A DNA stretch of 64,000 nucleotides from an uncultured Candidatus Rokubacteria bacterium (GCA_963826115.1 CAWGVS010000010.1:416001-480000); one strand, 5' to 3'; positions 18,640 to 37,524 are shown, counted from the stretch's first letter. Translations and numbers: made by a program. Notes: generated by a model from the sequence alone, not told the origin.

Positions 18640-18760
18640 TGGACCACCCCGATCCCGGGACCGATACTGAGGCCGCCTGGGGTATCGCTCGAGAGTGGGC
18701 AGCCAGGTGTACGTTGAAGGTTCCACCGCCCGGCGTGACGGGGGTGAAGGGAGACGAGAG

Positions 18761-21218
18761 ATGGATGACCCCGTGATGAGGCCGAGCGAGCCGCGCCTGC
18801 CCGTGACGCGTCCGGAGCCGCCCGCGGTCGGGCTGATGAGCCGACGAGCGGCGCTGGGCGGGCTGATCGTCCTCGCGTGGGAGGCGCGGGCGCTGGCCCA
18901 GACCCCGCCGGGGGGCGCGAGCCCGCCGATGTCCGCCGCGGACGCCCTGGCGGCGCGCGGCGCGCCGACCCCGGCGGACTGGCCCCGGGTGGTGAAGACG
19001 GGCGACACCACGATCGAGTACTACCTGCCCCAGCTCGACTCCTGGGACGGCCGCCGCCTCGAGACGCACAGCGCGGTCAGCATCCAGACCTCGGCGAAGG
19101 CGCCGCCCGTGTTCGGCGTCGCCGTCGTCGTGGCCGACACCCAGGTGGACAAGGGCGCGCGCCAGGTGACCCTCGAGAACGTCCGGATCGAGAAGGTGAC
19201 GTTCCCCTCGGCGACGGCCCAGGAGGCGGCCTACCAGAAGCTCCTGCAGCAGAGCATCCCCGCCAAGGTCCGCACGATCGAGCTGGACCGGCTGGAGACC
19301 GCGCTGTCGATGAGCGAGCAGAAGGAGAAGGGCGAGTCGAAGCCCCTCAAGAACGACCCGCCGAAGATCGTGTTCTCGACGACGCCGGCCATCCTCGTCC
19401 TGATCGATGGCGCGCCGGTGTACCGGCCGGTCCCGGGGAGCACCAGCTACACGCGGGTCGTGAACACGCGTCCGCTCATCCTGAAGGACACGGGCGGGAA
19501 GCACTTCCTCCGGCTCTTTGACGGGTGGATGACCGCCACCGCCTTCACGGGACCATGGACCGTCGCCCCCACCGTGCCCGGGGGCGAGCTCGACAAGCTG
19601 GTCCAGAATCTGTCGAAGACGCAGTCCCTGGACCTCCTCGACTTCGTGGACCCGAAGGACCCGAAGAGCCGGCCGACCCTGGCGAAGGGCCCGGTCCCCA
19701 CGGTCGTGGTGGCGACCGAGCCCACCGAGCTGATCGTGACGCAGGGGGAGCCGAACTACTCGCCCATCGACGGCACCCAGCTCCTCTACGCGTCGAACAC
19801 GACCGGCCACGTCTTCAAGCACCTCGGCGACCAGCGGACCTACGTGCTGGTGACCGGGCGCTGGTTCCGCGCGGAGGCGCTTGCGGGTCCGTGGACGTTC
19901 GTTCCCGGCAAGGACCTCCCGCCGGACTTCGCGAAGATCCCCGACGAGAGCCCGAAGGAGAACGTGAAGGCGTCGGTGCCCGGCACTCCGCAGGCCGGAG
20001 AGGCCGTGATCGCGAACAGCCTGCCCGAGACGGCGGCGATCAAGATCAGCGAGGCGAAGCTTCCGGTGCCGAAGTACGACGGACCGCCCCAGCTCAAGCC
20101 GATCGAGGGCACGCCGCTGTCCTACGTCGTGAACAGCCCGCTGCCGGTGATCCACGTCCCGCCGGACCAGTACTACGCCCTCCAGAACGGGGTCTGGTTC
20201 GTCGCCCCGTCGCCCCAGGGACCGTGGAAGGTCGCGACCACCGTGCCCCCGGTCATCTACTCGATCCCGCCGAGCTCGCCGCTGCACTACGTCACCTACG
20301 TCTACGTGTACCGGGCGACGCCCCAGGTGGTGTACGTCGGCTACACGCCGGGGTACTACAGCGTCTACGTGTCCGACGGCGTCGTGGTCTACGGCACCGG
20401 CTACTCGTACGTGTCGTGGGACGGCACCGTCTGGTACGGCACGCCGGTCACCTACGGGTTCGCGACCGCTCCGACCTACACGCCGTGGACCGGCTGGGTC
20501 ATGGGCTTCGGCTTCGGGCTCGCGTTCGGTGCCGCGACGGCCGGCTGGGGCTGGGGCTCCTACCCCTGGTGGGGTCCCTATCACTATGGTTACGGCTCCG
20601 GCCGGGCCGTCGGGCCGTACGGCGCCGCGGCGTGGGGTCCCGGTGGCTGGGCCGCGACCACCGGGAACGTCTACAGCCGGTGGGGCGACACCGCTGCGGT
20701 CACCCGCCACTCGGCGGGCTACAACGCGTGGACGGGGAACGCATGGGCGGGCGGCGCGGGGATGTCCTACAACTCGCGGACCGGCACCGTCGCGGCCGGC
20801 CAGCGGGGCGTCGTCAGCAACGCCTACACCGGCAACTACGCCTACGGGGGGCGCGGCGCCGCGGTGAACCCGAACACGGGGCAAGCGGTGTCGGCGCGGA
20901 CGCGTGACGGCGGGGAACGCCTACTCCGGCCAGGCCGGCTCGGCCGGCTACGTCCGGGGGGAGCAGGGCGGTGTGGCCCGAGTCGGCAACGACGTCTACG
21001 CCACCCGCGACGGCTCGGTCTACCGCAACACGGGCAGCGGCTGGCAGCAGAACAGCGGCAGCGGCTGGGGCAACGTGAGCGAGCCGGCGCGCACGCAGTC
21101 GCTCAACAACGAGGCCCAGGCCCGCTCGAGCGGCCAGACCCGCGTCAACAACTACCAGGCATCGGGCGGATACCGCGGCGGGGGCGGCGCTCGCGGGGGC
21201 GGCGGCCGACGGCGGTAA
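18761..21218 (+). CDS. Large exported Pro/Tyr/Trp/Gly-rich protein of unknown function (copy 1), frameshifted near 20896
   Basis: Tat-like 'MSRRAALGG' signal; extensive similarity to 49327..51693. The Gly-rich tail 'NDVYATRDGSVYRNTGSGWQQN...GGGRRR' is in the 20904..21218 frame. Confidence 0.8.
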
Positions 21219-21382
21219 CGCGCGTCGGCGCCGGCGCGTCGTTCGACCGCGGCGACGGCTCGATGGTACGCCATGGGGCGTTTGCCCCGTCGCGCCGCGG
21301 CCGTGACTCGATCGCGGGGAGTCACACAACCAGCGGGCAATGGTCCCGGCGAGGAGACCGGCCCGGGACAGGGGAAATCGCG

Positions 21383-21839
21383 ATGGGACGGATCGTCGGA
21401 GTCCTGGCGCTCCTCGCAGCCTATCGGCCGGATGCGCGACGCCGGGCGGGATCCCGATGCCGCAGGCCGACGTGGACGCGGTCAACCAGGCCGTCGAGGC
21501 GCACCGGGCGGCGTTCAACGCGCGCAACCTCGACGCGCTGCTCCTGGGCATCGCGGACGACGCCAGGGTCGTGTCGCTGCCCGCGTTCGGCACCGGACGC
21601 GGAGCGGGCGACGGCCAGGTGACGAAGGTCCAGTACCGGGAGGACATGACGGCCCTGATGGCGCGCGGCGACGGACGCTGCTCGAGCACGCCCGGTGGAC
21701 CGTGGAGTTCGCGGATGCGACCCACGCGACGGCCAAGGGGCAGGGCCAGCTCGGCGAGAGCCGCGGCGACTTCCAGTACAAGCTCGAGAAACGGCAGGGC
21801 CGCTGGGTGATCGTCGAGTCCACGGTGAAGCGGAAGTAG
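21383..21839 (+). CDS. Small NTF2/SnoaL-like lipoprotein, two apparent frameshifts (~21420, ~21670)
   Basis: Pieces join as MGRIVGVLALLA / LSAGCATPGG...AHRAAFNARNLDALL...DDARV / ...GDFQYKLEKRQGRWVIVESTVKRK. Confidence 0.6.
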
Positions 21840-23563: not shown

Positions 23564-23956
23564 CTAGCGAGGCGCGCCCGCCGCGGGCTTCAGCACGAGG
23601 AAGTCGGCCACGCCGATCAGGCGCAGGATGAGGCGGACGGGCCAGGGCACCATCCGCCGGGACGGGTCGTGGACCACCTCGGGGTGGACCAGGCGGACGT
23701 GCCGGCCGCGCGTCTCCACGACGCATGCGCCGGCCGCCAGGACGTTCTTCACCCACTCGCTGTCGCGCCCGTAGGTCAATGCGATCGCGTAGCCCAGGCC
23801 CTGCGCAAAGATGTTCACCGGCGTGCGCCGCACCCGGCCGCTCGTCCGGCCGACGTGGGTCACCATGGCGAAGCCGGGCGCCCACCACGCGATGTGCCGC
23901 AGGATGGGATTGGTCAGGATCAGGTTGAGTCGGGCGACGGCCCTGGGAATCGGCAT
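23564..23956 (-). CDS. Deazaflavin (F420)-dependent nitroreductase-family oxidoreductase (DDN/FDOR-like)
   Basis: 'HVGRTSGRVRRTPV...ALTYGRDSEWVKNVLAAG'. Confidence 0.82.
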   Translation of the reverse strand: MPIPRAVARLNLILTNPILRHIAWWAPGFAMVTHVGRTSGRVRRTPVNIFAQGLGYAIALTYGRDSEWVKNVLAAGACVVETRGRHVRLVHPEVVHDPSRRMVPWPVRLILRLIGVADFLVLKPAAGAPR

Positions 23957-24055
23957 CGCAGCTCCAAGGTACGCCGGCTCGGCGGCTCGCCGCGAGCGCT
24001 CGAGGCGCTGTGATATGGTGAGGCGGGCGCACGTCAGGACGCCCGGGAAGAGGCC

Positions 24056-24415
24056 ATGGTGGCGGAGCGCTTCATCATGAACGCCGGTCGGACGACCAAG
24101 CAGGGGCAGCAGGTCAACGCCGGCAAGGACTCCCCGGAGTATCGGGCGATCGTGAGCACCCTGACCATGCACCCCGAGGACATGCGGACGGTCGGCGTCG
24201 CCGCCGGCGGCTCCGTCCGGGTGCGCACGCCCCACGGCGAGGCGGTCTTCCAGTGCGTCGAGGGGAAGGTCCCCGCGGGGATGATCTTCGTCCCCTACGG
24301 CCCGCCCACCTGCCGGCTGATGGGCGGCGAGACCGACGGGACCGGCATGCCGACGTCCAAGGGCTGGGAGGTCGAGGTCGAGGCCATCGGGCCCGACGGC
24401 CCGGCCTCGGCGTAG
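24056..24415 (+). CDS. fwdD: Formylmethanofuran dehydrogenase subunit D (molybdopterin dinucleotide-binding domain)
   Basis: 'GRTTKQG', 'MHPEDM', 'VRVRTPHGE', 'GMIFVPYGP', 'TDGTGMPTSKG'; first gene of the fwd cluster. Confidence 0.88.
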   Translation: MVAERFIMNAGRTTKQGQQVNAGKDSPEYRAIVSTLTMHPEDMRTVGVAAGGSVRVRTPHGEAVFQCVEGKVPAGMIFVPYGPPTCRLMGGETDGTGMPTSKGWEVEVEAIGPDGPASA

Positions 24416-24448
24416 ACCGTCTCGCGACGCGGGATCGGGGAGCGCACG

Positions 24449-24607
24449 ATGGCAGAGCGGTTCGAAGAAACAAGGATGGGGGAGCGGGACGCCGCGCGGC
24501 CCGACGCTCCGGCCGGCGGCCACACCCCGGCCTGGGAGCTGGTCGAGCCCGGGCGCTACCGACCCCTCCGGATCCGGGGGAGCTTCCCCGGCCGCGAGCT
24601 CGGCTGA
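24449..24607 (+). CDS. Possible 52-aa small ORF between fwdD and fwdB
   Basis: GGGGAG-N6-ATG; MAERFEETRMGERDAARPDAPAGGHTPAWELVEPGRYRPLRIRGSFPGRELG; no recognised family. Confidence 0.3.
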   Translation: MAERFEETRMGERDAARPDAPAGGHTPAWELVEPGRYRPLRIRGSFPGRELG

Positions 24608-24663
24608 ACGTTCGCGGTGCCGCCCGGTCCGGGGCGGCCAGACGAGGCGGAAGCGGGAGACCG

Positions 24664-25998
24664 ATGACCGTCACGGTCGTGAAGAACGCGACGTGCACCT
24701 TCTGCGGGTGCGTCTGCGACGACATCGAGCTCCACGCCGATGGCACGCGGATCCTCAAGAGCAAGAACGCCTGCAGCCTCGGCGACGCCTGGTTCCAGAA
24801 CCACACGGCCGAGCGCCTGTACCCCGACGCGCTGGTGGACGGGAAGCCCGCGACGCTCGACGCCGCGGTGGAGGCGGCCGCGAGCTTCCTCCACGCCGCG
24901 GACATGCCGCTCGTCTACGGCCTCAGCAACATCACCTGCGAGGCCCAGCGGGAGGCGGTGGCGATCGCCGAGCTGATCGGCGGCGTGATCGACAGCCACA
25001 CCTCCCTCTGACACGGCCCCACTGAGATAGCCGCCCAGTTGGGGGGCAAGGTGACGTGCACGCTGGGGGAAGTGAAGAACCGGGCGGACCTCATCATCTA
25101 CTGGGGCGGTAATCCGGCCGAGTGCCACCCGCGGCACTTCACGAAGTACACGCTGACCCAGAAGGGGAAGTACGTCCCGCAGGGCCGGAAGGGCCGCTAC
25201 ATGGTCCTGGTCGACATCCGCGAGACGCCCAGCGCGCGCGCGGCCGACCTGTTCCTCCAGATCCGGCCCGGCAAGGACTTCGAGGTCGTCACCACGCTCC
25301 TGGCGCTCGTGAAGGGCCGCCCGGTGGACGCCGAGCGCGTCGCCGAGACTGGCATGACGGTCGAACAGCTCCAGGACCTCGCGGACCGGATGAAGCGCGC
25401 CCGCTTCGGCGTCCTGTTCTTCGGGATGGGCCTGTCGATGACGCGGGGGAAGCACATGAACTCCGCGTCGGTCCTGACCCTGGTCACGGCGCTGAACGCC
25501 TACACGAAGTTCGTCGCCATGCCGATGCGGGGCCACGGCAACGTGACCGGCGCCGACATGGTGATCCGCTGGACGACGGGCTACCCGTTCGGCGTCAACC
25601 TGGCCCGCGGCTACCCCCGCTTCAATCCCGGCGAGTTCTCGACCGTGGACCTCCTCGTCCGCGGCGACAACGACGCCGCGCTCATCCTGGGGGCCGATCC
25701 GGGCGCCACGATGCCCCAGCCCGGCATCGAGCACCTGCGCCGCATCCCGACGATCGTCCTCGACCCGAAGGTGACCCACACCAGCCGCATGGCGCGCGTG
25801 CACATCACGACCGCCGCCACCGGCATCAGCGCGCCCGGCACCGTGTACCGCATGGACGAGGTGCCGCTCCCGCTCCGGCCCGCCCTCAGCTCCCCGTACC
25901 CGACCGACGAGGAGGTCCTGCGCCGCATCCGCCGGGCCGTCGCGGCGAAGCCGGCCTGGACGCCGGCGGCGTCGAACGGTCGACCGCGCTCCGCCTGA
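24664..25998 (+). CDS. fwdB: Formylmethanofuran dehydrogenase subunit B, selenocysteine-containing (in-frame TGA 25009-25011, residue 116)
   Basis: N-terminal [4Fe-4S] motif CTFCGCVCDD...NAC. 'DSHTSL*HGPT' aligns with FwdB 'DxxxSxCHGP'. The downstream in-frame ORF has 'TCTLGEVKNRADLIIYWGGNP...HPRH' and 'MRGHGNV'. 444 aa when read through. Confidence 0.9.
25012..25048 (+). promoter_or_regulatory. Candidate bacterial SECIS hairpin
   Basis: cacggccccactgagatagccgcccagttggggggc can fold as CCCC-ACUG/CAGU-U-GGGG (loop AGAUAGCCGCC) or GCC-G-CCC/GGG-G-GGC (loop AGUU). Both loops have G at position 2. Rare codons (ACT, ATA, TTG) cluster here. Confidence 0.6.
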
Positions 25999-26003
25999 CC
26001 GCG

Positions 26004-27638
26004 ATGCTCCGCATCACCGGCGGGAAGGTCTACGATCCCGCCAACGGCGTGGACGGCGAAGTCCGGGACGTCGCCATCGCGGATGGCCGGATCGTGTCCC
26101 ACGTCGAGGGCGGGCGGACGATCGACGCGACGGGCATGGTCGTCGTCCCCGGTGGCGTCGACGCCCACACCCACGTGGCCGGCGCCGCGCTCAACTTCGC
26201 GCGCGCCATGACCCCGGAAACCCAGCGGCAGGCGCTTCCGTTCCTCCACACGCCGGAGCGGCGGATGGGGCTCGGCGGCCTCACGCCCACGACCTTCGCC
26301 ACCGGGTACCTCTACGCCGGCATGGGCTACACGACGGTCACCGAGGCCGCGGTGCCGGTGCTCACCGCCAAGCACACGCACGAGGAGCTCCGCGACACGC
26401 CGATCCTCGACAAGGCGTGCCTGCTCCTCATGGCCAACAACGAGATCGTGATGGACCTCCTGGAGGCCGGGGAGACGGAGCGCGCCGGTCACGTCGTGGC
26501 CTGGCTCATCTGGGCCGCCAAGACGTACGGCGTGAAGGCGGTCAACCCGGGCGGCGTGGCGGCCTGGAAGTGGGGCGGGAACGCGAAGGGGCTCACCGAT
26601 CCGATCGAGGGCTACCGCACCGTGACCCCGGCCCGGATCATCGAGAGCCTGGCGGATATCATCGACGGCCTCGGGCTCCCGCACCCGCTCCACCTTCACT
26701 GCAACGCGCTCGGCATGCCGGGCAACGTCGCGACCACGCTCGAGACCATGCGGATATTGGAGGGCCGCCGGGCCCACCTGGCGCACCTCCAGTTCCACGC
26801 GTACGGCGGCGACGACTGGGCCACGATGCGCTCGGAGGCGCCGGCGGTCGCCGAGTACTTCAACGCGCACCCGGGCTTCACGGCCGACGCCGGCGCGATC
26901 CTGTTCGGGAACGCCATGACGATCACCGCCGACGGGCCCTGGCAGCACCTGCTCCACGAGCTGACCGGGCGCAAGTGGGGCAACATCGACGTCGAGAACG
27001 AGACGGGGTGCGGCATCGTGCCGTACGTCTACAAGAAGCGCAGCCTCGTCAACGCGGTGCAGTGGGCGACGGGGCTCGAGCTCCTGCTGCTCGTCACCGA
27101 CCCCTGGCGGATCTTCCTGACCACCGACCATCCGAACGGAGCCGGCTTCTGGCGCTACGCGGAGATCGTCCAGCTCCTGACGGACGTGGACTACCGCCGG
27201 GAGCGGGTGAAGAGCCTGCCGACCAAGGCGCTCAAGCGGATCGTGCTCCCGGAGCTCGACCGCCGGTACACGCTGTCGGAGATCGTGACCATCACCTCCG
27301 CGGGGCCGGCGCGGGCTCTCGGCCTCTCGCGGAAGGGGCATCTCGGCGTCGGCGCGGACGCGGACGTGGCGATCTACTCCGAGCGCGCGGGCGTCGTGGC
27401 GATGTTCCAGTCGCCCCGCTACGTCCTGAAGGGCGGCGAGATCGTCGTCGAGGAGGGCCAGGTCCGGGCGGTGACCGAGGGCCGCGAGTTCGTCGTCCGG
27501 CCCGCCTTCGATCCCGGCATCGAGGACTACCTCCGGCCGGTGTTCCAGCAGTCCTACACCATGTCCTTCGACAACTACCCGGTCGAGGCCGAACGCGTCC
27601 ACGGCATGGAGCTGGCCGAGTGCCGGCCCCGCGCGTGA
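26004..27638 (+). CDS. fwdA: Formylmethanofuran dehydrogenase subunit A (binuclear amidohydrolase)
   Basis: 'YDPANGVDGEVRD', metal ligands 'DAHTHVAG', 'GVKAVNPGG', 'HLHCN', 'HLQFHAYG', 'TTDHPN'; 'ETGCGIVP'. Confidence 0.93.
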   Translation: MLRITGGKVYDPANGVDGEVRDVAIADGRIVSHVEGGRTIDATGMVVVPGGVDAHTHVAGAALNFARAMTPETQRQALPFLHTPERRMGLGGLTPTTFATGYLYAGMGYTTVTEAAVPVLTAKHTHEELRDTPILDKACLLLMANNEIVMDLLEAGETERAGHVVAWLIWAAKTYGVKAVNPGGVAAWKWGGNAKGLTDPIEGYRTVTPARIIESLADIIDGLGLPHPLHLHCNALGMPGNVATTLETMRILEGRRAHLAHLQFHAYGGDDWATMRSEAPAVAEYFNAHPGFTADAGAILFGNAMTITADGPWQHLLHELTGRKWGNIDVENETGCGIVPYVYKKRSLVNAVQWATGLELLLLVTDPWRIFLTTDHPNGAGFWRYAEIVQLLTDVDYRRERVKSLPTKALKRIVLPELDRRYTLSEIVTITSAGPARALGLSRKGHLGVGADADVAIYSERAGVVAMFQSPRYVLKGGEIVVEEGQVRAVTEGREFVVRPAFDPGIEDYLRPVFQQSYTMSFDNYPVEAERVHGMELAECRPRA

Positions 27639-27645
27639 CCCCCGC

Positions 27646-28455
27646 ATGATCACGCTGACGCTCACGCGGCCGCCGACCGTGCCCCTCGAGGCGGAGAGCA
27701 TCTCGCCGGACGTCATGGCGCCGCTCTCCCACGACGCGATCCGAGCCCTGCCGGTGCTCCTGGGGAAGCGGCAGCGCCGTCTCGACGACTTCTTCGCGGT
27801 CGAGGGCGTGGCGAGCGACGAGCTCCTGATCCGGGGCGACCTCGGGCGGGTCAAGTGGATCGGCCGGGGCATGACGCGCGGCCGCATCGCCATCGAGGGC
27901 AACGCGGGCATGCACCTCGGGGCCTCCATGCGGGGCGGGACGATCGAGGTCCGCGGCAACGTGTCCGACTGGCTGGGCGCCGAGATGTCGGGTGGGCTCA
28001 TCCGGGTCCGCGGCAACGCCGGCGGCCAGGTGGGGGCCGCCTATCGCGGCAGCCCCCGAGGGATGAACCAGGGGACGATCCTGATCGAGGGCTCGGCGGG
28101 CATCGAGCTGGGGATGCGGATGCGGCGCGGCGTCATCGCCGTCGCCGGTCCCGTGCGCGACTTCGCCGGGCTCCAGATGAAGGGCGGGACGATCTTCCTG
28201 CTGGGCGGGGCGGAGATCCGGACCGGCGCCTGGATGAGCCGCGGCACGATCGTCTCCATGAAGCCGCTCCACCTCCTGCCGACGTTCACCTACGCCTGCA
28301 CATATCAGCCCACGTTCCTGCGCCTCTACGCGCGACATCTCGAGACCCTCGGGTTGCCCATTCCCGCCGATTCCGGGGATGGGTCCTACCAGCGCTACAC
28401 GGGGGACACGTCGGGCCTGGGCAAGGGCGAGATCTTGGTGTGGGAGGCGCGGTAA
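27646..28455 (+). CDS. fwdC: Formylmethanofuran dehydrogenase subunit C (GXGXG beta-helix)
   Basis: 'PLEAESISPD', repeated 'G..M..G.I.I.GN.G', C-terminal 'GKGEIL'. Confidence 0.93.
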   Translation: MITLTLTRPPTVPLEAESISPDVMAPLSHDAIRALPVLLGKRQRRLDDFFAVEGVASDELLIRGDLGRVKWIGRGMTRGRIAIEGNAGMHLGASMRGGTIEVRGNVSDWLGAEMSGGLIRVRGNAGGQVGAAYRGSPRGMNQGTILIEGSAGIELGMRMRRGVIAVAGPVRDFAGLQMKGGTIFLLGGAEIRTGAWMSRGTIVSMKPLHLLPTFTYACTYQPTFLRLYARHLETLGLPIPADSGDGSYQRYTGDTSGLGKGEILVWEAR

Positions 28456-28590
28456 CCAGCGGGACACGACGGGGGTCGGCATGGCAGGCAGCATGACGCG
28501 TCGCGCCAGGGCGACCGAAGCCGTTCCGGTGGCACCCGCGGTCGACGCGAGGTCGTAGGGTACCCTGGAGGTCGCCACAGGGCGCCAGAC

Positions 28591-29460
28591 ATGCCTCTCC
28601 GCGTAACGAAGCCAGAGCTGGAGTTGGACGTCCCGAAGGGCGCCTCCGCCGTTCCCCACACGGTGGTCAGCTTCCGGGACCTGATTCCGGCCGTCCAGGA
28701 GGACGAGCTCGCCGTCGAGGAGCCGCTCGAGATCCGGCTGGGCGGTACGAGTCTCGCCGTGACCATGCGGACGCCCGGGCACGACGAGGAGCTCGTCGCG
28801 GGCCTGCTGCTCTCTGAGCGCGTGATCGAGGGCCCCGCCGACATCGACGTGATCGCCCACTACACCGGACCGGACGACGATCCCCGGGTCGGGAACGTGA
28901 TCAACGTCCTCCTGAACCGTCCCGGCCCCGCGATCCACCAGCGCCTCCACCGGAGCTTTTTCACGTCCTCCGCCTGCGGCCTCTGCGGCAAGACCTCGCT
29001 GGACGCGATCGACTTGGACTTCCAGCCCGTTGCCGGCGACGTCACGGTGTCCCTCGACGCGCTCTACACGCTCGTCCCCGCGCTGACCGCGGTGCAGGCG
29101 ACCTTCGAGCGGACGGGTGGCCTCCACGCGGCCGCGCTCTTCGACTCCACCGGGCAGCTCCTGGCGGTGCGGGAGGACGTGGGGCGGCACAACGCCGTCG
29201 ACAAGGTCGTCGGCCACATGCTGCTGACGGGCGGCCTGCCCCTCGACCGGCACATCCTGATGGTGAGCGGACGGGCGAGCTTCGAGATCATGCAGAAGGC
29301 GCTGGTGGCGCGGATCCCTGTCGTGGCCGCCATCTCGGCGCCGTCGAGCCTGGCGGTCCAGCTGGCGCTCGCCAACGGCGTGACCCTCATCGGCTTTCTG
29401 CGCCCCGGGCGGCTCAACGTGTACGCGAATTCCCACCGGCTCCGGCCGGAGCCTGCGTGA
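28591..29460 (+). CDS. fdhD: Formate dehydrogenase accessory sulfurtransferase
   Basis: 'VEEPLEI', 'TMRTPGHD', 'SSACGLCGK', 'TGGLHAAALF', 'EDVGRHNAVDKVVG', 'SAPSSLAV'. Confidence 0.95.
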   Translation: MPLRVTKPELELDVPKGASAVPHTVVSFRDLIPAVQEDELAVEEPLEIRLGGTSLAVTMRTPGHDEELVAGLLLSERVIEGPADIDVIAHYTGPDDDPRVGNVINVLLNRPGPAIHQRLHRSFFTSSACGLCGKTSLDAIDLDFQPVAGDVTVSLDALYTLVPALTAVQATFERTGGLHAAALFDSTGQLLAVREDVGRHNAVDKVVGHMLLTGGLPLDRHILMVSGRASFEIMQKALVARIPVVAAISAPSSLAVQLALANGVTLIGFLRPGRLNVYANSHRLRPEPA

Positions 29461-29498: not shown

Positions 29499-29684
29499 TT
29501 ACGACGGAGTGGCGCCCTGGCGAAGGCGGTCGATGAGCGCCGTCACCTCTTCGAGGCGCGCGCGCACCTCCCGCTCGGACTCGCGTATCTCCTCCAGCGA
29601 AGACCGGTTCTGAACCGCGTCCTCGTACGCGGTCACGGCCACACCGAACACCCTCAGGAGGCGGCGGGTCTCGTCGCTGGGCAT
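29499..29684 (-). CDS. Small hypothetical helical protein (61 aa)
   Basis: MPSDETRRLLRVFGVAVTAYEDAV...; AAGGAAGG RBS; overlaps the AOR 3' end. Confidence 0.6.
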   Translation of the reverse strand: MPSDETRRLLRVFGVAVTAYEDAVQNRSSLEEIRESEREVRARLEEVTALIDRLRQGATPS

Positions 29685-31501
29685 CGATGTCCTTCCTTCT
29701 CGGCCGCGGGAATTCCGAGCTCGGTGGCCTTCCATTGGGGAACGAACCCGTGTTCGTCCCACTGCCTCGCCTCGTAGTAGCCGCCCACCATCTCGCGTAG
29801 CTCGTCTCGAGACAACCCGATGCCGGCGGCGACCCCGGTCGGCAGCGATTCGCTCAGCAATCGCTCGGGCAGCCAGTCGTCCTCGGGTTGCCAGCGCTCT
29901 CGGATGTTGAAGAGCTTCTTCAGCGTGTGGATGCGTTCGCCCGCGCGACGTAACTCCGCGCCCGTGTAGTCCCAGCCCGTCACTGCGGCGAGCATCTCCG
30001 CGGCTTCCGCGTAGAAGTCGGTGAAGCACTTCCGCAGAAACTTGCAGACGATCAGCGAGTCCAGCACCGCGGCGAAGTCTTCCGACGCCGCGACCAGGGT
30101 GCCCCGGCTCGCGTCACCGCGGAATCGATCCACCTCGCCGGAAAAGTCGGCTTCGTACGCGCCCGACCGGTTGTGACAGGCGCCGCGCGGGCTGACGGCC
30201 AGGCCCAGCGCCATGGTCTTCAGGCTTCGCGGGTCGTACCCCGGAAGCTCGAGACCCTTCACCTGCATCGCCCAGTAGCCACTGTCCCGGCCGGTCTCGA
30301 TCGCGGCGCGTTTCGATCCCTCGGCCAGGAGATCGCCCACGCCTTCCCGATTGGCAATCGCGCCGATCGTGGCCAGGACCGCTTCGCCGTGGCCGAAGCG
30401 CAATCCGAGCGCCTCCGCCTCGGGCAGCACTCCCTTCTGGACGCTCTCGATCGCCCATGCGAGCGTGCCGCCGGTGCTGATCGTATCGAGACCATAGCGA
30501 TCGCAGAGACGAGCCGCGGCGAGCACGACCTCGGGATCGCTGATGCCGCAGAGCGGCCCGAGCGCAAACAAGGTCTCGTACTCGAGCCTCTGTTCTTCGC
30601 CGCCGCGCGACGCGAAGAGCCGCTCGCAGCGAATCGAGCAAGATGCGCAGCCGTGCCGGCGGCTGAAGCTCGTTTCGGTCAGCGACTCCCCGGTCAGGGC
30701 ATCGGCCTCTTCGAAGGTGGCCTGCTGGAAGTTGCGCGTGGGCAGCGTGCCGAGGCGGTTGAACACCGCCAGGTTGGCGACGGTCCCGACGAGCCGGTAC
30801 TTGGCGGTCACCGCGCCGAGGCTGCGGCGTCGCAGCGACTCGGCGATGGCGCTCACCTGTCGGGGATCCGCGACCAACGTGGCCCGGTCGCCGGACACTG
30901 CGATGGCCTTCAGGTTCTTGGACCCCATCACTGCGCCGACGCCGCCCCGGCCGGCATGGCGACCCTCGTTGCTGATGGTGGCGAAGCGGACCCGGTTCTC
31001 GCCGGCGCTGCCAATGGACGCCACCCACGCGCCCCGGCACCCCCCGTCGGAGCGGATGAACGATTGCGTCTCCTCCGGGGTCTTCCCCCTCAGCTGGTCG
31101 GCCGCTCGAATCTCGACCTCCTCGCCACGGATGAACAGGTAGACCAAGGACGGCGCCTGGCCGGTGATCACCAGAGCATCGATGCCGAGCCGCTTCAGCT
31201 CCAGGGCGAAGTGGCTCGACGAGAGCGAGTCCGCGATGAATCCGGTCAACGGCGACTTGGTGACGACCGCGAACTTCGCCGTCGTGGTGAGACCGGTTCC
31301 GACCAGGGGTGCGGTTGCGAAGATCAGGGGGTTGTCGGCTGACAGTGGATCGACTCCCGGGGGCGCATAGTCGTGGAGCAGGCTCACCCCAAGGCCTATG
31401 CCGCCCATGTACATGCGCAGCCGCGACTCTTCCAGGTCGTGGTGCGCGCTACGCCCGCTCGTCAGATCGATGTGCAGGACGCGGCCGGAAAAGCCGTGCA
31501 C
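29654..31501 (-). CDS. aor: Tungsten-type aldehyde:ferredoxin oxidoreductase family protein
   Basis: GTG start (V)HGFSGRVLHIDL; 'KSPLTG', 'GRGGVGAVMGSKNLKAIAV', 'GCASCSIRC', 'EYET', 'GLDTISTG', 'VKGLELPGYDPR', 'RGACH'. Confidence 0.92.
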   Translation of the reverse strand: MHGFSGRVLHIDLTSGRSAHHDLEESRLRMYMGGIGLGVSLLHDYAPPGVDPLSADNPLIFATAPLVGTGLTTTAKFAVVTKSPLTGFIADSLSSSHFALELKRLGIDALVITGQAPSLVYLFIRGEEVEIRAADQLRGKTPEETQSFIRSDGGCRGAWVASIGSAGENRVRFATISNEGRHAGRGGVGAVMGSKNLKAIAVSGDRATLVADPRQVSAIAESLRRRSLGAVTAKYRLVGTVANLAVFNRLGTLPTRNFQQATFEEADALTGESLTETSFSRRHGCASCSIRCERLFASRGGEEQRLEYETLFALGPLCGISDPEVVLAAARLCDRYGLDTISTGGTLAWAIESVQKGVLPEAEALGLRFGHGEAVLATIGAIANREGVGDLLAEGSKRAAIETGRDSGYWAMQVKGLELPGYDPRSLKTMALGLAVSPRGACHNRSGAYEADFSGEVDRFRGDASRGTLVAASEDFAAVLDSLIVCKFLRKCFTDFYAEAAEMLAAVTGWDYTGAELRRAGERIHTLKKLFNIRERWQPEDDWLPERLLSESLPTGVAAGIGLSRDELREMVGGYYEARQWDEHGFVPQWKATELGIPAAEKEGHRCPATRPAAS

Positions 31502-31503
31502 CG

Positions 31504-32433
31504 CTAGCCCCCCGCGTCCGCCGAGAGTATGACGATGTTGTCTCCCGGATTGACGGTGACCGTCGGCGTGCGGATGAAGTCCAGGCCGTTCACGTTGCAC
31601 GCAAAGCCGTCGATGAGGCGAGCCCGATCGGGGGCGATGACCCTGCCAACCAACACCGGCAGCTCGGCGGCGAGCGCCGCATAGACCTCGGAGAACGTCG
31701 CCCCCGCGGGCAGGCTGAGCGACACCTCCCTGGTGTGGGCCAGGAAGCGCGCAGCGCCGAACAGCTCGACGGTGCACTGAATCGTGGCATCCGAGCGCAG
31801 GCCGGGTGATCGGCGCGCCTGGCTCCAGCGCCTCTGCGCCTCTGCGTAGTCCTCCGGCGTGTTCATGTTGAAGAAGCTCGAACCGTCGGGGTCGAAGCGG
31901 CGAATCTCCTCCTCGTCGACCCTGCGGGTGCGAACGCGATCGAACAGATAGACGGGCCTCAGCTGCCCGCGCGCGAGGAGCTCCGCGAGGTGCGGTAGCA
32001 CGCTGCGTCGATAGACCGCATGCAGCGGTTGGTCGCGGCCCTGCCAGTGAGGCACGACGACGTCGTGCTCCGGCATCTGCGAGACGAGGTGTGCGATCAG
32101 GTCCACGTTCAGGAACGCCGCGTCGCAGGACGTGGCGAAGCTGACCTCCCCGCGGGCGGCGCCGAGCCCGTAGCAGAGCCCGCCGACGGGCCCCTGGTGC
32201 TCGACCTGGTCGCGCACCAGCGTGACGGGCATCGAGGGCAGATCCTGGCCCGGTGCGGCGACGACGACCACCTCGGCAAACCGGCGTCGCAGCGTGGCGA
32301 CGATGTGCACGATGAGCGGCGTGCCGTCGAAGAGGAGTAGCGCCTTGGGCGTGCCCATGCGCGAGCTCCGGCCTCCGGCCAGCACGATGGCCGTGGCACC
32401 GGTCGCGTTACCTGGACGTTCGATCGCAGTCAT
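31504..32433 (-). CDS. mobA: Molybdenum cofactor guanylyltransferase MobA fused to a C-terminal MoaD/ThiS domain
   Basis: 'IVLAGGRSSRMGTPKALL', 'QGPVGG', 'QPLHAVY', 'FFNMNTPEDY', then a beta-grasp 'CTVELFGAAR...ILSADAGG'. Confidence 0.88.
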   Translation of the reverse strand: MTAIERPGNATGATAIVLAGGRSSRMGTPKALLLFDGTPLIVHIVATLRRRFAEVVVVAAPGQDLPSMPVTLVRDQVEHQGPVGGLCYGLGAARGEVSFATSCDAAFLNVDLIAHLVSQMPEHDVVVPHWQGRDQPLHAVYRRSVLPHLAELLARGQLRPVYLFDRVRTRRVDEEEIRRFDPDGSSFFNMNTPEDYAEAQRRWSQARRSPGLRSDATIQCTVELFGAARFLAHTREVSLSLPAGATFSEVYAALAAELPVLVGRVIAPDRARLIDGFACNVNGLDFIRTPTVTVNPGDNIVILSADAGG

Positions 32434-32682
32434 CGTGTGACGGCACCCCGCGCTCGAGCGAAGGCCCGCCTGCGCTCAACGACCCAGTCGGGCTCCGCTC
32501 TTCAGGGACGACGTGGAGGCGCGCAGCCTGACGACCAACGTCCGTGGTCACGCGGGGTGTCAGGCCCCCGCAGCGCTCGCGTCCTTGGGTGGTCCACAGC
32601 GCCAGTGTCGACAGGCGTGACACCAAGTCCCTTATACATACACCGGCGTTTGCGAAAGAGGTAGTCAGCTCGTCCCGGGCCC

Positions 32683-32715
32683 TCGGCGGCTCAGGGTTGT
32701 CGGCGGCTCAGGGTT
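32683..32715. repeat. 16-bp tandem direct repeat TCGGCGGCTCAGGGTT x2
   Basis: Copies at 32683-32698 and 32700-32715. Confidence 0.8.
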
Positions 32716-32744
32716 TGACCGACGCCCGCTGCCCTCGCTATACT
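32715..32744 (+). promoter_or_regulatory. sigma70-like promoter TTGACC-N18-TATACT
   Basis: Near-consensus -35/-10 upstream of ORF 32797. Confidence 0.55.
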
Positions 32745-32796
32745 CCGGCCGACGGCACCGGTGAAGGCTGCCCCACACCGTCACGCGGTGGACAGC

Positions 32797-33150
32797 ATGA
32801 GCAAAGAGCGCTCCTCGGACGAGCCCCCGGCCAATTCGCCCTGGGGAGGGCCCTCCGAGCGGGCCCTCAAGATGCGCAAGCGGCCGGACCAGGGGGCCGA
32901 CCTCTTCCGCGCGGCGCTCCAGCAGATCGAGGATCCGGCGCGACTTCGGCAGGCCCTGCTCGAGCTCAGCCGGACCTACAACCCGGTCACGAACGCCACC
33001 CTGCTGGCGCCCGAGGTGCGGCAGCGGGTCCTCGAGCTCGCCGGTCAAGGGGCAGGCGACGAGGCCCGCCAACTCCTGGAAGCGGCCCTGGGCCGCTACA
33101 TCGAGTCGGGGCAGCCTCCCGGGTCCCCGGAAGCGTCACGAGGCGCTTGA
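32797..33150 (+). CDS. Hypothetical protein
   Basis: GC3-rich codon usage; downstream of the sigma70-like promoter; no recognised motif. Confidence 0.6.
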   Translation: MSKERSSDEPPANSPWGGPSERALKMRKRPDQGADLFRAALQQIEDPARLRQALLELSRTYNPVTNATLLAPEVRQRVLELAGQGAGDEARQLLEAALGRYIESGQPPGSPEASRGA

Positions 33151-33254
33151 CATGGTGTCGCCTGGGCCCCTAGGATCGGGGTAGCGGTTCTGGAACACCC
33201 CCCGTAGCGCGCCTTGCTGAACTGATTGAAGGCCGAGGCCAGCGGAGGTGGTGC

Positions 33255-33536
33255 ATGTCATTACCGTCTCGCCCGACTGCCTGGCTCCAGGAAAACCGTC
33301 TCGTCGTCGTGTCCGTCGATCCGGTGGGCGGTCATCTCCGCCTGCGAGGCGTCCAGGACCAGTGCTCTGACATGAGCTGTGGCGGCGATGCCGTCGTGGT
33401 CGCTGACGAGACGACCTCGGCCTTGGACGCGCTCAGCCCCGGTGACATCGTGAAGATCGAGTCCCCCGCCGTCGGACCGATGCGCATCGTCGTTCTCCGG
33501 CGCGCCTGGGAAGAGTACGCCAGCCCGGAGCTCTAG
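33255..33536 (+). CDS. Small hypothetical protein (possible OB-fold-like)
   Basis: GGAGG RBS; 'LVVVSVDP...LSPGDIVKIE...RRAWEEYASPEL'. Confidence 0.55.
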   Translation: MSLPSRPTAWLQENRLVVVSVDPVGGHLRLRGVQDQCSDMSCGGDAVVVADETTSALDALSPGDIVKIESPAVGPMRIVVLRRAWEEYASPEL

Positions 33537-33666
33537 CCAGGGTGCTTCGCGAGCCCTTTCGGCCTCCGCCGCGCTCCACCCGGCTCGCTGCGGTTACCTT
33601 TGCCCGAAACGTGCCCCGGGATCGGGCACCCCGATGTGACGCCAGCCACGCGAGAGGAGAACGGCC

Positions 33667-36600
33667 ATGAGCCTGTCTCGACGTGACTTCCTGAAGTGGT
33701 CCGGCGGCGCCTCCGGCGGCGTTCTCGCGGGAACCCGGGGCATCGACCTCGCCCCCGTCGAGGCCGCCGTGAGCGACCTCCGGATCAAGGAGGCCAAGAC
33801 CTTCCCGGGCGTCTGTCCCTACTGCGCGGTCGGGTGTGCCCAGCTGATCTACGTGAAGGACGGCAAGATCGTCGACATCGAGGGCGACCCCGACACCCCG
33901 CATACCGAAGGCGCGCTCTGCCCGAAAGGCTCCTCTACCTACCAGCTCTCGGTCAACGCGCGCCGCTTGACGAAGCCCATGTACCGGGCGGCGGGTAGCG
34001 ACAAGTGGGAAGAGAAGCCCCTCGACTGGATGATGGAGCAGATCGCCCAGCGCGTGAAGAAGACGCGGGACGCCAGCTTCGTCGAGACCGCCAAGGTCGG
34101 CGACAAGCCCGTCACCGTCAATCGCTGCGAGGGCATTGCCTGGCTCGGCTCCTCGGTGCTCGACAACGAGGAGAACTACCTGATCGCGAAGCTCTCCCGG
34201 GGCCTCGGCCTGGTGAACCTGGAGAACTCCGCGCGGCTCTGCCACTCGGCGACCGTGCCGGCGCTCGGCGCGACCTTCGGCCGGGGCGCCATGACGACCA
34301 ACCTGATCGACGTCATCAACGCCGACGTGATCATGCCGACCTCCAACTGGGCCGAGTGCCACCCCGTCAGCTACAAGTGGGTGATGAAGGCCAAGGAACG
34401 CGGCGCGACGATCATCCACGTCGATCCTCGCTTCACACGGACGTCCGCGACCGCGGACATCTGGGTGCCCATCCGGTCCGGCACCAACATCGTGTACTTC
34501 GGCGGGCTCATCCGCCACGCGATCGAAAGCAACAAGTACTTCCACGACTACGTGGTCGCCTACACCAACGCCTCGCTCCTCCTGGACCCGGCGTTCAAGA
34601 GCCCGACGGATCTCGACGGAGTGTTCAGCGGCTTCGACGCGGGAAAGCGTGCCTACGACCAGGCAACCTGGAAGTTCCAGCTCGATGCCGACGGCTACCC
34701 CAAGCAGGACAAGACCCTGAAGGACCCGAACTGCGTCTTCCAGCATCTCCGCCGGCACTACTCGCGATACACCCCGGAGATGGTCGAGAAAGTGTGCGGC
34801 ATCTCGAAGGAGCTGTTCCTCAAGGTGGCCGACATCTTCTGCTCGGCCTCCGGGCCCGACAAGACCTCGACCATCTCGTACGCGCTTCAGCTTAACCAGT
34901 CGACGAACGGCGTGCAGCAGATCCGCTCCCTCTGCATGCTCCAGCTGATCCTCGGCAACATCGGACGCCCGGGCGGGGGAGTCGTGGCCCTCCGGGGGCA
35001 CTCGAACGTCCAGGGGGCCACGGATTTCGGGACGCTCTACCACATGTTGCCGGGCTATCCGATCGAGCCCCTCCAGGCGGCCCACCCCACCCTGACCGAC
35101 TATCTCGAGAAGACGACGCCCAAGGGCGGCTACTGGGTGAACAATCCGAAGTTCGTGATCAGCCTGCTCAAGGCTTGGTGGGGCCCCGCTGCCACGAAGG
35201 ACAACGACTACGCCTACGACCACCTCCCGAAGCGGGAGAAGGGCGATGCGTACTCGCACCAGCACTTCATGATCGCGATGCTCGAGAAGAAGGTGAAGGG
35301 GTTCCTTTGCATGGGCCAGAACCCGGCGGTCGATAGCCCGAACGCCGGAACGGTTCGTCAGGGTCTCCGGAACCTCGAGTGGCTGGTCGTCGTCGATCTC
35401 TTCGAGACCGAGACGGCCGCGGTGTGGAAGGCGCCGGGCGCCGATTCGAAGTCCTGCCAGACCGAGGTGTTCTTCATCCCGGGAGCGCCAGCGGCGGAGA
35501 AAGATGGATCGATCACCAACACCATGCGTCTCGCGCAGTGGCACGTGAAGGCGGTCGAACCGCCCGGTGAATCCCGCTCCGACGCGGCATTCATCGTGGA
35601 GCTCGGGAACAGGCTCAAGGCGCTGTACACGGGTTCCCGCGCCAAGAAGGACCGGCCTGTGCTCGACCTAGTCTGGGACTACCAGCCCGACGGACCGAAG
35701 AAGGAACCGAAGATGGAGCTGGTCCTGAAGGAGGTCAACGGATACGCCACCGAGGACATCCCGGACAAGGACAAGCCCGGGGAGCTCCTGTTCAAGCGCG
35801 GCCAGCCGGTCAAGAGCTTCGGGAACCTGCGGGACGATGGTTCGACGGCCTGCGGCAACTGGATCTACTCCGGGATCTATCCCGAGGAGGGGAAGAATCT
35901 CGCCGCCCGGCGCGAGAAGCCGAAGGGCGACGACTATCTCGCCCACGGCTGGGGGTTCGCTTGGCCGGCGAACCGCCGGATCCTCTACAACCGCGCCTCG
36001 GCGGACCCCTCGGGGAAGCCCTGGAGCGAGAAGAAGAAGCTCATCTGGTGGGACGCCGCCCAGAAGAAGTGGGTCGGCAACGACGTGCCCGACTTCAGCC
36101 CCGTCATGGCGCCCGACGCGCCACGCGCGAAGGACGGCCCGCTCAAGGGTATCTCGGGAACCGACGCGTTCATCATGAACCCGCATGGGCTCGGGCAGTT
36201 CTTCGCGTCGGTCCTGGACGGGCCGTTCCCCGAGCACTATGAGCCCTTCGAGTCGCCCACTCAGAACCTCCTCTCGAAGGTCCAGAACAACCCCGTCGCC
36301 AAGGTCTACGACGTCGGTGATCTCAACAAGCTCGGGACGCCGGACAAGTACCCCTTCGTCCTCACGACGTACCGGCTCACCGAGCACCACGCTGCCGGCA
36401 TGTCGCGGCATGTGCCCTGGCTCTCCGAGCTGTTCTTTGGCCACTTCGCGGAGATCGGGCCCGAGATGGCAAAGCAGCTCGGAATCCAGAACGGCGACAT
36501 GCTGAGCGTCGAGACGCCCCGGGCCAAGATCAAGGTGCGGGCGCTCGTGACCGAACGCATCAAGCCGTTCACGATCAACGGTAAGAAGGTTTACCAGGTC

Positions 36601-36747
36601 GGCATCCCGTGGCACTGGGGGTACCAGGGCGTCATGGAGTCGGCTCGAGGCGACGTGACCAACGACCTCGTCGCGAACCTCGGCGACCCGACGACGTTCA
36701 TCCAGGAGTCCAAGGCGCTCCTCTGCAACGTGCGGAAGGAGGCGTAG
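33667..36747 (+). CDS. fdnG: Formate dehydrogenase alpha subunit (FdnG/FdoG-like), Tat-exported, Cys-ligated
   Basis: Tat 'SRRDFLK'; CPYCAVGC...LCPKG; 'ENSARLCHSAT' (TGC at 34240); 'LRGHSNVQG'; 'GPFPEHYEPFESP'; 'TTYRLTEH'. Confidence 0.93.
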   Translation: MSLSRRDFLKWSGGASGGVLAGTRGIDLAPVEAAVSDLRIKEAKTFPGVCPYCAVGCAQLIYVKDGKIVDIEGDPDTPHTEGALCPKGSSTYQLSVNARRLTKPMYRAAGSDKWEEKPLDWMMEQIAQRVKKTRDASFVETAKVGDKPVTVNRCEGIAWLGSSVLDNEENYLIAKLSRGLGLVNLENSARLCHSATVPALGATFGRGAMTTNLIDVINADVIMPTSNWAECHPVSYKWVMKAKERGATIIHVDPRFTRTSATADIWVPIRSGTNIVYFGGLIRHAIESNKYFHDYVVAYTNASLLLDPAFKSPTDLDGVFSGFDAGKRAYDQATWKFQLDADGYPKQDKTLKDPNCVFQHLRRHYSRYTPEMVEKVCGISKELFLKVADIFCSASGPDKTSTISYALQLNQSTNGVQQIRSLCMLQLILGNIGRPGGGVVALRGHSNVQGATDFGTLYHMLPGYPIEPLQAAHPTLTDYLEKTTPKGGYWVNNPKFVISLLKAWWGPAATKDNDYAYDHLPKREKGDAYSHQHFMIAMLEKKVKGFLCMGQNPAVDSPNAGTVRQGLRNLEWLVVVDLFETETAAVWKAPGADSKSCQTEVFFIPGAPAAEKDGSITNTMRLAQWHVKAVEPPGESRSDAAFIVELGNRLKALYTGSRAKKDRPVLDLVWDYQPDGPKKEPKMELVLKEVNGYATEDIPDKDKPGELLFKRGQPVKSFGNLRDDGSTACGNWIYSGIYPEEGKNLAARREKPKGDDYLAHGWGFAWPANRRILYNRASADPSGKPWSEKKKLIWWDAAQKKWVGNDVPDFSPVMAPDAPRAKDGPLKGISGTDAFIMNPHGLGQFFASVLDGPFPEHYEPFESPTQNLLSKVQNNPVAKVYDVGDLNKLGTPDKYPFVLTTYRLTEHHAAGMSRHVPWLSELFFGHFAEIGPEMAKQLGIQNGDMLSVETPRAKIKVRALVTERIKPFTINGKKVYQVGIPWHWGYQGVMESARGDVTNDLVANLGDPTTFIQESKALLCNVRKEA

Positions 36748-36749
36748 CC

Positions 36750-37523
36750 ATGGCCCGCACCCTCGCGATGTTCACGGACGTCTCGCTGTGCATCGGGTGT
36801 CGCGCCTGCCAGGTCGCCTGCAAGCAGTGGAACCAGCTGGCGCCCGAGGAGCCGGAGTGGACCGGCACCTACCAGAACCACGCGCACTTCACTGACAAGA
36901 GCTACCGGCTCGTGCGGTTCTTCGAGGAGCCGGACGACAAGGTCGGCGTGCGCTGGCACATGATGTCCGACGTGTGCAAGCACTGCGCCCAGGCGGGCTG
37001 CCTGGAGGCGTGCCCCACCGGGGCGATCTACCGCACCGAGTACGGCACGGTCAACATCAACCAGGACATCTGCAACGGCTGCCGCTACTGCGTGTCCGCC
37101 TGCCCGTTCGGCGTGGTCGCGTTCAACCACGACACCGGCACCGCCACGAAGTGCACGTTCTGCAACGACCGCATCCACAACGGCCTCGGACCCGCCTGCG
37201 CGAAGGCGTGCCCGACCGAGTCGATCCGTTTCGGCTACCGCGACGAGCTGGCGGCCCTTGCCCGGAAGCGGGTGGAGACGCTCCGGAAGCAGGGGTACAA
37301 GGACGCCCGGCTCTACGGCGAGGATCAGAACGGCGCCCTGGGCGGCCTGAACGCCTTCTTCCTGATCACGGGGAAACCGTCGATCTACGGACTGCCCGAG
37401 AACCCGAAGCTCCCTCAACGCAACGTGTTTGTCGACTCTCTCCTGTCGATCGGCTCGGCAATCGCCGTCGGGATCGGGGCCGTCGTGGCGTTCCGCTCGC
37501 GGGGCGGGAAGGAGGAGAGCTGA
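36750..37523 (+). CDS. fdnH: Formate dehydrogenase iron-sulfur subunit (FdnH-like) with C-terminal TM helix
   Basis: Four CxxCxxCxxxC-type motifs (CIGCRACQVAC, CKHC...CLEACP, CNGCRYCVSACP, CTFC...CAKACP). Confidence 0.92.
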   Translation: MARTLAMFTDVSLCIGCRACQVACKQWNQLAPEEPEWTGTYQNHAHFTDKSYRLVRFFEEPDDKVGVRWHMMSDVCKHCAQAGCLEACPTGAIYRTEYGTVNINQDICNGCRYCVSACPFGVVAFNHDTGTATKCTFCNDRIHNGLGPACAKACPTESIRFGYRDELAALARKRVETLRKQGYKDARLYGEDQNGALGGLNAFFLITGKPSIYGLPENPKLPQRNVFVDSLLSIGSAIAVGIGAVVAFRSRGGKEES

Positions 37524-37524
37524 G

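Follow-up and report, generated by a model that had tools for sequence, protein, structure and literature searches.

A predicted small selenoprotein gene within the selenocysteine-type formyl-methanofuran dehydrogenase operon of a Rokubacteria-like bacterium

Introduction

The tungsten (W) formyl-methanofuran dehydrogenases of archaea, FwdABCDFG, are represented by several solved structures (5t5i, 8rja, 9sfi, 9sw6 and 7bkb), and polyferredoxin/ferredoxin, Hdr and F420 modules are given for the archaeal enzymes only in section 10 of PMC11656701. The Fhc complex of Methylorubrum extorquens (6s6y) occupies the same place in its pathway with homologous A, B and C subunits; it contains FhcD and no FwdD, and table 1 of PMC10100899 gives FhcB without a pterin cofactor. 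A third arrangement, described by Kim et al. (2016, PMC4807772), is a planctomycete operon (isolate P2) with the order fmdD-fmdB-fmdA-fmdC and a selenocysteine (Sec)-containing fmdB, an organization that they also noted on a Lake Washington fosmid and in Ca. Methylomirabilis oxyfera. fwdD has also been noted in NC10, Firmicutes and Synergistetes (Chistoserdova 2016, PMC5020050), and 149 bacterial FwdB homologues have been counted (Wells et al. 2023, PMC10100899). Here, we analyze a 64,000-nucleotide stretch of DNA (the window; GCA_963826115.1 CAWGVS010000010.1, contig C10:416001-480000) from the 6.24-Mb assembly, 99% complete, of an uncultured Candidatus Rokubacteria bacterium. The window contains a fwdDBAC-fdhD operon in which a short open reading frame (ORF) between fwdD and fwdB very probably encodes a selenoprotein.

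The operon is a member of the published bacterial Sec-type kind, with the gene order, the Sec in subunit B and the lack of FwdF and FwdG of the operon of Kim et al. A preliminary description of this DNA had held that it matches neither known type of enzyme, a view that does not stand beside that earlier report. It differs from the operon of Kim et al. in that fdhD follows it and Ftr lies on another contig; that paper lists no small selenoprotein beside fmdB, whereas the window has one predicted there. Since Sec-type bacterial fwdDBAC is already published, the operon alone settles little, and the most interesting item in the interval is the overlooked, predicted small selenoprotein gene. Taken together, the sequences make it likely that the operon encodes the genome's only formyl-methanofuran dehydrogenase, one of the bacterial Sec type, and that the small gene is read through its UGA; its product may act as an accessory in trans.

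Results

Operon layout and the small gene

The five operon genes fwdD, fwdB, fwdA, fwdC and fdhD lie on the + strand between 24056 and 29460, at the positions described earlier, in a window of 70-72% G+C. Within the 249 bases that separate fwdD from fwdB lies a further ORF (24449-24604), preceded by a Shine-Dalgarno-like GGGGAG, which the preliminary description had overlooked. The features of the operon are as follows.

24056..24415, + strand: fwdD, cap domain (domain IV) of the W/Mo-pterin module, 119 amino acids; PF01568 (Molydop_binding) 3e-12
24449..24667, + strand: predicted small selenoprotein gene, 52 codons, TGA (Sec) at 24605-24607, then 19 further codons
24619..24638, + strand: selenocysteine insertion sequence (SECIS)-like hairpin of the small gene, 7-bp G+C stem, loop GGUCCG, beginning 11 nucleotides past the TGA; predicted fold
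24664..25998, + strand: fwdB, W/Mo-bis-pterin subunit with a 4Fe-4S site; TIGR03129 502 bits (cut-off 328)
25030..25047, + strand: SECIS-like hairpin of fwdB, 7-bp stem with one mismatch in the window, AGUU loop, 18 nucleotides past the UGA
26004..27638, + strand: fwdA, amidohydrolase subunit with the formyl-methanofuran site; TIGR03121 679 bits (cut-off 393)
27646..28455, + strand: fwdC, GXGXG beta-helix subunit; TIGR03122 262 bits (cut-off 131); PF01493
28591..29460, + strand: fdhD, sulfurtransferase for the sulfido ligand of the pterin cofactor; NF001943 290 bits (cut-off 269); PF02634 3.9e-67

Read through its internal TGA, the small gene would specify 72 residues in the window, and its terminal TGA overlaps the fwdB ATG (ATGA). 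The conserved part comprises the last 25 residues before the internal TGA, W-E-x-[IV]-x-x-G-R-[YF]-x-P-R-R-x-[RK]-G-S-x-x-G-R-x-L-G, and is preceded by a variable N-terminus; across the UGA, the core continues as R-x-L-G-U-[TAV]-F-x-x-P. The conserved peptide ahead of the TGA retrieved 135 loci from at least four phyla, composed of the window, 52 related loci, 80 metagenome loci and two congeners. The related loci derive from a FwdA scan of species-representative genomes, of which the best 80 of 148 were kept. A profile of the conserved block finds the small gene in the window and in 52 of these 80 loci: in all 51 where fwdD is followed by fwdB, and in L031, which ends at fwdD. The gene is single-copy in its own genome, and the order fwdD, small gene, fwdB, fwdA, fwdC recurs in loci labelled Rokubacteria, Planctomycetota, Acidobacteriota and Binatia. 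It is seen only with a Sec-type fwdB (all 60 metagenome loci that span the FwdB site carry TGA there) and is absent from all four Cys-type operons of close relatives.

Evidence for reading the UGA as selenocysteine

Directly after the conserved block stands TGA in every one of the 135 loci; TAA and TAG do not occur there. Coding character is evident on both sides of this codon. Ahead of it, entropy at codon positions 1, 2 and 3 is 0.35, 0.46 and 1.51; after it, variability peaks at the third position in three of the four spacer codons, the second codon is an invariant Phe (TTT in 68 loci, TTC in 65), and each of the 133 measurable loci has an open frame of 12 codons or more. A hairpin with a G+C stem and a GUU, GUC or GGUC-type loop begins 11-12 nucleotides past the TGA. 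It is predicted with at least 5 bp in 124 of 133 loci, 97 of which show a GUU or GUC loop. In an alignment of 53 sequences, 89.2% of cells are paired and five of the seven pairs have changed on both sides; the covariation score is reached by 0 of 500 shuffles, and slid partners pair in 26-55% of cells. The hairpin resembles those of fwdB and of the genome's formate dehydrogenase-like gene, and the overall arrangement (in-frame UGA, hairpin 11-12 nucleotides on, coding sequence on both sides) is that of known bacterial selenoprotein genes. The genome encodes the machinery for Sec insertion, with SelA (577 bits), SelB (348 bits), SelD (393 bits) and tRNA-Sec. On this pattern of conservation, the small gene is very probably a selenoprotein gene, with a product that would probably count as a new selenoprotein associated with bacterial Fwd.

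Within fwdB itself, the single in-frame TGA (25009-25011) stands in the context DSHTSL-U-HGP, and the hairpin recurs in the window and 54 related loci. The Sec site reads TGA in 53 of the 61 loci with a FwdB match, Cys, Thr and Ser in one each, and is uncovered in five. RNA contigs from four soil or rhizosphere libraries contain parts of fwdB across the UGA, and contigs of two relatives contain the end of the small gene with its hairpin; since contigs can show neither transcription nor translation, these give a weak hint only.

The selA, selB and tRNA-Sec genes are grouped at C8:81424-86039, and selD (C5:561687-562604) carries an in-frame TGA of its own and is thus a selenoprotein gene itself. 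Outside the window, a second molybdopterin enzyme gene at C10:502124-503311 (- strand) has an in-frame TGA (NIDSCNRT-U-HAPS) followed 13 nucleotides later by a GGUCU-loop hairpin, and is probably a Sec formate dehydrogenase.

For the small protein, Pfam and NCBIfam return 0 matches at E<=10, and the ESM Atlas returns only unnamed clusters of 52-55 amino acids with scores of 0.87-0.88, under the 0.9 mark. Database copies carry the name hypothetical protein, and gene callers terminate nearly all of 57 clusters at the TGA, which would keep such a family hidden. No motif among the 119 prokaryotic selenoprotein families in table 1 of a May 2026 review (PMC13188914) fits LG-U-TF. Literature on selenoproteins or SECIS elements together with formylmethanofuran dehydrogenase yielded no mention of the small gene, which recent selenoprotein surveys may already list. 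Many planctomycete small proteins have a Cys seven residues ahead of Sec or in an acidic tail and the Rokubacteria ones have none; with no conserved partner Cys, a classical selenenyl-sulfide redox pair is not general in the family.

Public annotation of FwdB is poor as well. Among the 120 best public-database matches, 107 are fragments of 310-318 amino acids, starting past the UGA and bearing the name formylmethanofuran dehydrogenase subunit B. The public protein database systematically mis-calls the Sec form of FwdB, which hides how common the redox-active, Se-dependent formyl-methanofuran dehydrogenase is in soil and water bacteria.

Accessory protein in trans or gate in cis

The sequences leave an even chance that the small protein is a trans-acting accessory of the Sec-type enzyme. 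Alternatively, the ORF could act in cis as a gate, with its UGA passed only when Sec-tRNA is present, ribosomes ending at or near the fwdB start, and the nascent peptide slowing termination; fwdB, itself a selenoprotein gene, would then be translated only under available selenium. Such a gate would suit the 25 conserved residues placed directly ahead of the UGA behind a variable N-terminus, a layout like that of arrest peptides, the fwdB start that overlaps the frame as ATGA in 17 of 53 loci (window included), and the restriction of the small gene to Sec-type fwdB. However, the UGA-to-fwdB distance is at least 100 nucleotides in 14 of 52 loci and at least 400 in six, two of which hold a whole extra fwdB-like gene, and these distances fit a protein acting in trans better than a cis leader. 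The residues after the UGA are moreover conserved as amino acids, which a gate would not need and which favors an accessory protein. We know of no precedent for such a mechanism and regard the gate as unlikely.

As an accessory, the small protein might serve in maturation, protection or the electron outlet of the FwdBD module, each of which is conjecture. It could also be a fifth, so far unrecognized component (~60-80 amino acids) of the bacterial Sec-type Fwd that takes on a FwdF/G- or partner-type task and founds a new prokaryotic selenoprotein family; for this, too, the sequence evidence is evenly poised. A complex predicted from alignments of FwdB (represented by the Cys homologue P0003), of FwdD and of the small protein (P0164) scored 0.02, which speaks neither for nor against an association. 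Fusion of the small protein to FwdD was considered and rejected: the frames differ in L065, L097, L102 and L106 on hand check, and in the window the two share a frame with a TAG between them.

A further reading takes the TGA as a true stop and the hairpin as another RNA element, such as a SelB-binding regulator or a stabilizer. It draws on the lack of a confirmed Cys homologue, on gene calls that end at the TGA, and on Rfam, which gives 0 matches on the window at the gathering score and a single chance-level microRNA match at E<=10 in 24400-25150. Yet Rfam also misses the SECIS of fwdB, and the exclusive use of TGA, the Phe codon split between TTT and TTC, the third-position variability and the open frame beyond the TGA all oppose a stop, which we consider improbable.

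Subunit identities and the electron partner

Family models and alignments to solved chains bear out the earlier assignment of FwdD, a 4Fe-4S- and Sec-bearing FwdB, FwdA with its metal ligands, FwdC and FdhD. FwdA, FwdB, FwdC and FwdD match the archaeal subunits over nearly their full length. FwdD aligns with the solved archaeal chains 9sfi_S (5.8e-19) and 5t5i_D (1e-18) and scores 82 bits on NCBIfam NF042908, under the 175-bit cut-off. The metal-site motifs of FwdA (HxH, Lys, two His, Asp) align with those of solved FwdA chains; the binuclear metal ligands are given as four His, Asp and carboxy-Lys in PMC11656701, without residue numbers. FwdB shares the Sec/Cys-His motif and the 4Fe-4S cysteines of the archaeal enzyme, and every aligned homologue (9 of 9 and 11 of 11) keeps its Cys11, 14, 16, 18 and 37. 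fwdA and fwdB are each present in one copy above cut-off in the genome.

The window operon differs from archaeal FwdABCDFG in lacking FwdF, FwdG and any Hdr or F420 reductase module, in its extra small selenoprotein gene, and in a direction that is likely oxidative. FwdF and FwdG are missing from the operon, and neither is conserved beside it in 91 related loci of at least 7 kb, a comparison that did not include a genome-wide FwdF/G search. The earlier statement that the operon has no FwdF/G holds and extends to any other electron-transfer subunit, both in the operon and conserved alongside it in these loci. Clustering of their flanking ORFs shows that, besides Fwd subunits, just Ftr (25 loci) and common planctomycete families recur. 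DUF1559, WD40 and PSCyt/DUF1553 were discarded as partners, being ordinary planctomycete families. The only ORF in the whole window with a ferredoxin CxxCxxCxxxC motif is a PsrB-like one (36585-37523), part of a Psr-like molybdoenzyme cluster located 8 kb downstream.

In the proposed route, Fae would join formaldehyde to tetrahydromethanopterin, Mtd would carry out an oxidation and Mch a hydrolysis, and a stand-alone Ftr encoded on another contig (C3) would move the formyl group to methanofuran. FwdA would cleave formyl-methanofuran, and formate would travel within the complex to FwdB/FwdD, where a Sec-ligated W- or Mo-bis-pterin centre would convert it to CO2. Electrons would leave via the single FwdB 4Fe-4S cluster to an acceptor not encoded in the operon. 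The sequences show the subunit identities, the Sec codon and its hairpin, the Sec machinery, the pathway genes and the Ftr link in relatives; direction, metal, tunnel and acceptor are the parts of this scheme that we infer.

The same enzyme could run reductively and make formyl-methanofuran from CO2, either to serve assimilation or to act as an electron sink. Archaeal enzymes are reversible (PMC11656701, section 10), and the neighboring aldehyde:ferredoxin oxidoreductase gene suggests low-potential ferredoxin chemistry in the organism. Reduction would, however, require a donor near -0.5 V (PMC11656701), for which no module is found in or near the operon, and fae with an NAD(P)-type mtd are genes of the oxidative bacterial route. 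We judge net reduction improbable.

Pathway genes and the carrier

Contig C3 holds, at positions 80-96 kb, fae (249 bits), ftr (446 bits), a DUF447 gene, the beta-RFAP synthase gene (mptG) and mch (387 bits), together with pterin synthesis genes, MfnF-, MfnE- and MfnB-like genes, the Mpt_N methylene-tetrahydromethanopterin dehydrogenase gene mtd (109 bits) and a DUF1464 gene. The MfnB-, MfnE- and MfnF-like matches fall under their equivalog cut-offs; the MfnF-like gene clears TIGR03123 (353 bits against 244). A search of the whole genome for Ftr gives its sole match here. Thus, the earlier statement that the formyltransferase is missing applies to the operon and not to the genome. In related loci the two are linked: Ftr adjoins the operon in 18 of 80, and an Ftr cluster occurs in 25 of the 91 loci of at least 7 kb.

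The preliminary description had also proposed a carrier other than methanofuran. The operon's lack of Ftr would suit this, as would a soil study in which Rokubacteria genomes were reported to encode none of three formaldehyde oxidation pathways (PMC5103831). Against it stand the largely complete tetrahydromethanopterin/methanofuran pathway on C3, with Ftr, Mch, Mtd, Fae, beta-RFAP synthase and the MfnF/E/B-like genes, the adjoining Ftr at orthologous operons, and the 679 bits of FwdA on its equivalog model. The pathway genes and the link to Ftr in relatives make methanofuran almost surely the carrier, and another carrier is very hard to support. In contrast to the statement in PMC5103831, the present Rokubacteria-like genome has the full methanopterin route.

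An Fhc-like hydrolytic complex whose pterin site is no longer used, a reading to which close FwdB homologues could point in which Ser or Thr replaces Sec/Cys, is scarcely credible: Sec with its hairpin, FwdD, the 4Fe-4S cysteines and fdhD are all retained, Ftr lies outside the operon, and FwdB scores 354-378 bits against archaeal FwdB chains and just 56.5 bits against M. extorquens FhcB, over residues 57-152 only. The enzyme is of the redox type, as described before. FwdA scores 417-484 bits against archaeal chains (8rja_A, 484) and 357 bits against FhcA (6s6y_A).

Relatives and the Cys-type operon

The nearest FwdA relatives (87-90% identity) are labelled Candidatus Rokubacteria, followed by Planctomycetota, Acidobacteriota, one Binatia and a few others. 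The fwdD-fwdB-fwdA-fwdC order is held in most loci that span it, and fdhD follows fwdC in only five of 80, four of them L028, L033 and L036 (labelled Rokubacteria) and L034. FwdB is found above cut-off in 10 of 41 related genomes, a tally that includes the unpublished G038, from which no conclusion is drawn.

Four relatives (G004, G010, G019 and G025) carry a Cys-type operon, fae-fwdD-fwdB(Cys)-fwdA-ftr-fwdC, with FwdB ~64% and FwdD 44-52% identical to the window proteins. Its enzyme is of the same family as that of the window and comes from members of one genus or family, with Cys for Sec, Ftr and Fae inside the operon and no small gene; the window operon is the opposite on each count. Both types occur together in G004, a situation reminiscent of Methanopyrus kandleri with its Sec and Cys isoenzymes (cited in PMC4807772).

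At C3:80223-81715, fae is followed directly by ftr, the same pair that brackets fwdD-fwdB(Cys)-fwdA in four relatives (L107-L110), where fwdC comes after ftr. Judged by this gene order, the island looks like the remnant of a Cys-type operon after loss of its fwd genes; such a loss would explain why Ftr lies apart from the remaining Sec-type operon.

In two Gemmataceae loci, an extra FwdB-like paralogue with a weak Molybdopterin match stands between the small gene and the Sec-type fwdB (L050:9591-10907 and L054:7044-8312), and L030, L038, L047 and L100 have 420-520 nucleotides of unexplained DNA between small gene and fwdB. The fwdB-fwdA gap holds selfish-looking genes in many planctomycete loci (L030, L038, L088, L093, L094, L096, L097, L100, L104 and L065). 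These inserts were rejected as electron carriers, being PemK/MazF, PIN, DUF4058, DUF5615, helix-turn-helix or AbiEii-like AAA genes, toxin-antitoxin-like or with no known function.

Neighboring genes

A run of Mo/W-cofactor genes (29654-38457) lies downstream of the operon, composed of the aldehyde:ferredoxin oxidoreductase gene, a MobA-like gene and a Psr-like set.

29654..31777, - strand: aldehyde:ferredoxin oxidoreductase (tungsten family), convergent with the operon; AFOR_N 233 bits, AFOR_C 384 bits, matching from residue 98
31504..32430, - strand: MobA-like nucleotidyl transferase (pterin guanine dinucleotide synthesis); PF12804 1.2e-36
33667-36744, 36609-37520 and 37429-38457: Psr-like set, namely molybdopterin oxidoreductase, 4Fe-4S protein and NrfD membrane subunit

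The real start of the oxidoreductase gene is probably further inside the ORF. Upstream and divergent from fwdD, an F420 (deazaflavin)-dependent nitroreductase-family gene occupies 23564-24013 (- strand; TIGR00026 57 bits, above cut-off). A 975-amino-acid ORF at 18695-21622 (+ strand) has a coding-like base composition and a Gly/Tyr/Trp-rich C-terminal half, and matches no Pfam family.

Discussion

Several findings count against the combined reading of a sole Sec-type enzyme accompanied by a small protein read through its UGA. No electron acceptor for the enzyme was found, FwdF/G having been checked in the window and the relatives' flanks only. The small protein has no solved-structure relative at E<=0.1, its one match (E 0.37) being at chance level. 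PQQ (pyrroloquinoline quinone) methanol dehydrogenase gives 0 matches in the genome at 99% completeness, so the formaldehyde for the pathway may come from other reactions. Finally, the small protein has no established Cys homologue; the Sec position reads C in P0164 and W in P0148. The metagenome loci retrieved with P0164 all carry TGA (80 of 80), including eight that are 78-92% identical to it, and its C may stand for U.

The poor public annotation of FwdB masks the extent of this Se-dependent enzyme in soil and water bacteria. In one genus both kinds of operon occur, the Sec type accompanied by the small gene and the Cys type lacking it, which offers a natural comparison for the benefit of selenium. 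The small gene is the sole conserved extra component of this enzyme and a concrete handle on the wiring of bacterial Fwd. If its predicted read-through is true, it represents a new selenoprotein family tied to C1 oxidation in widespread, mostly uncultured phyla.

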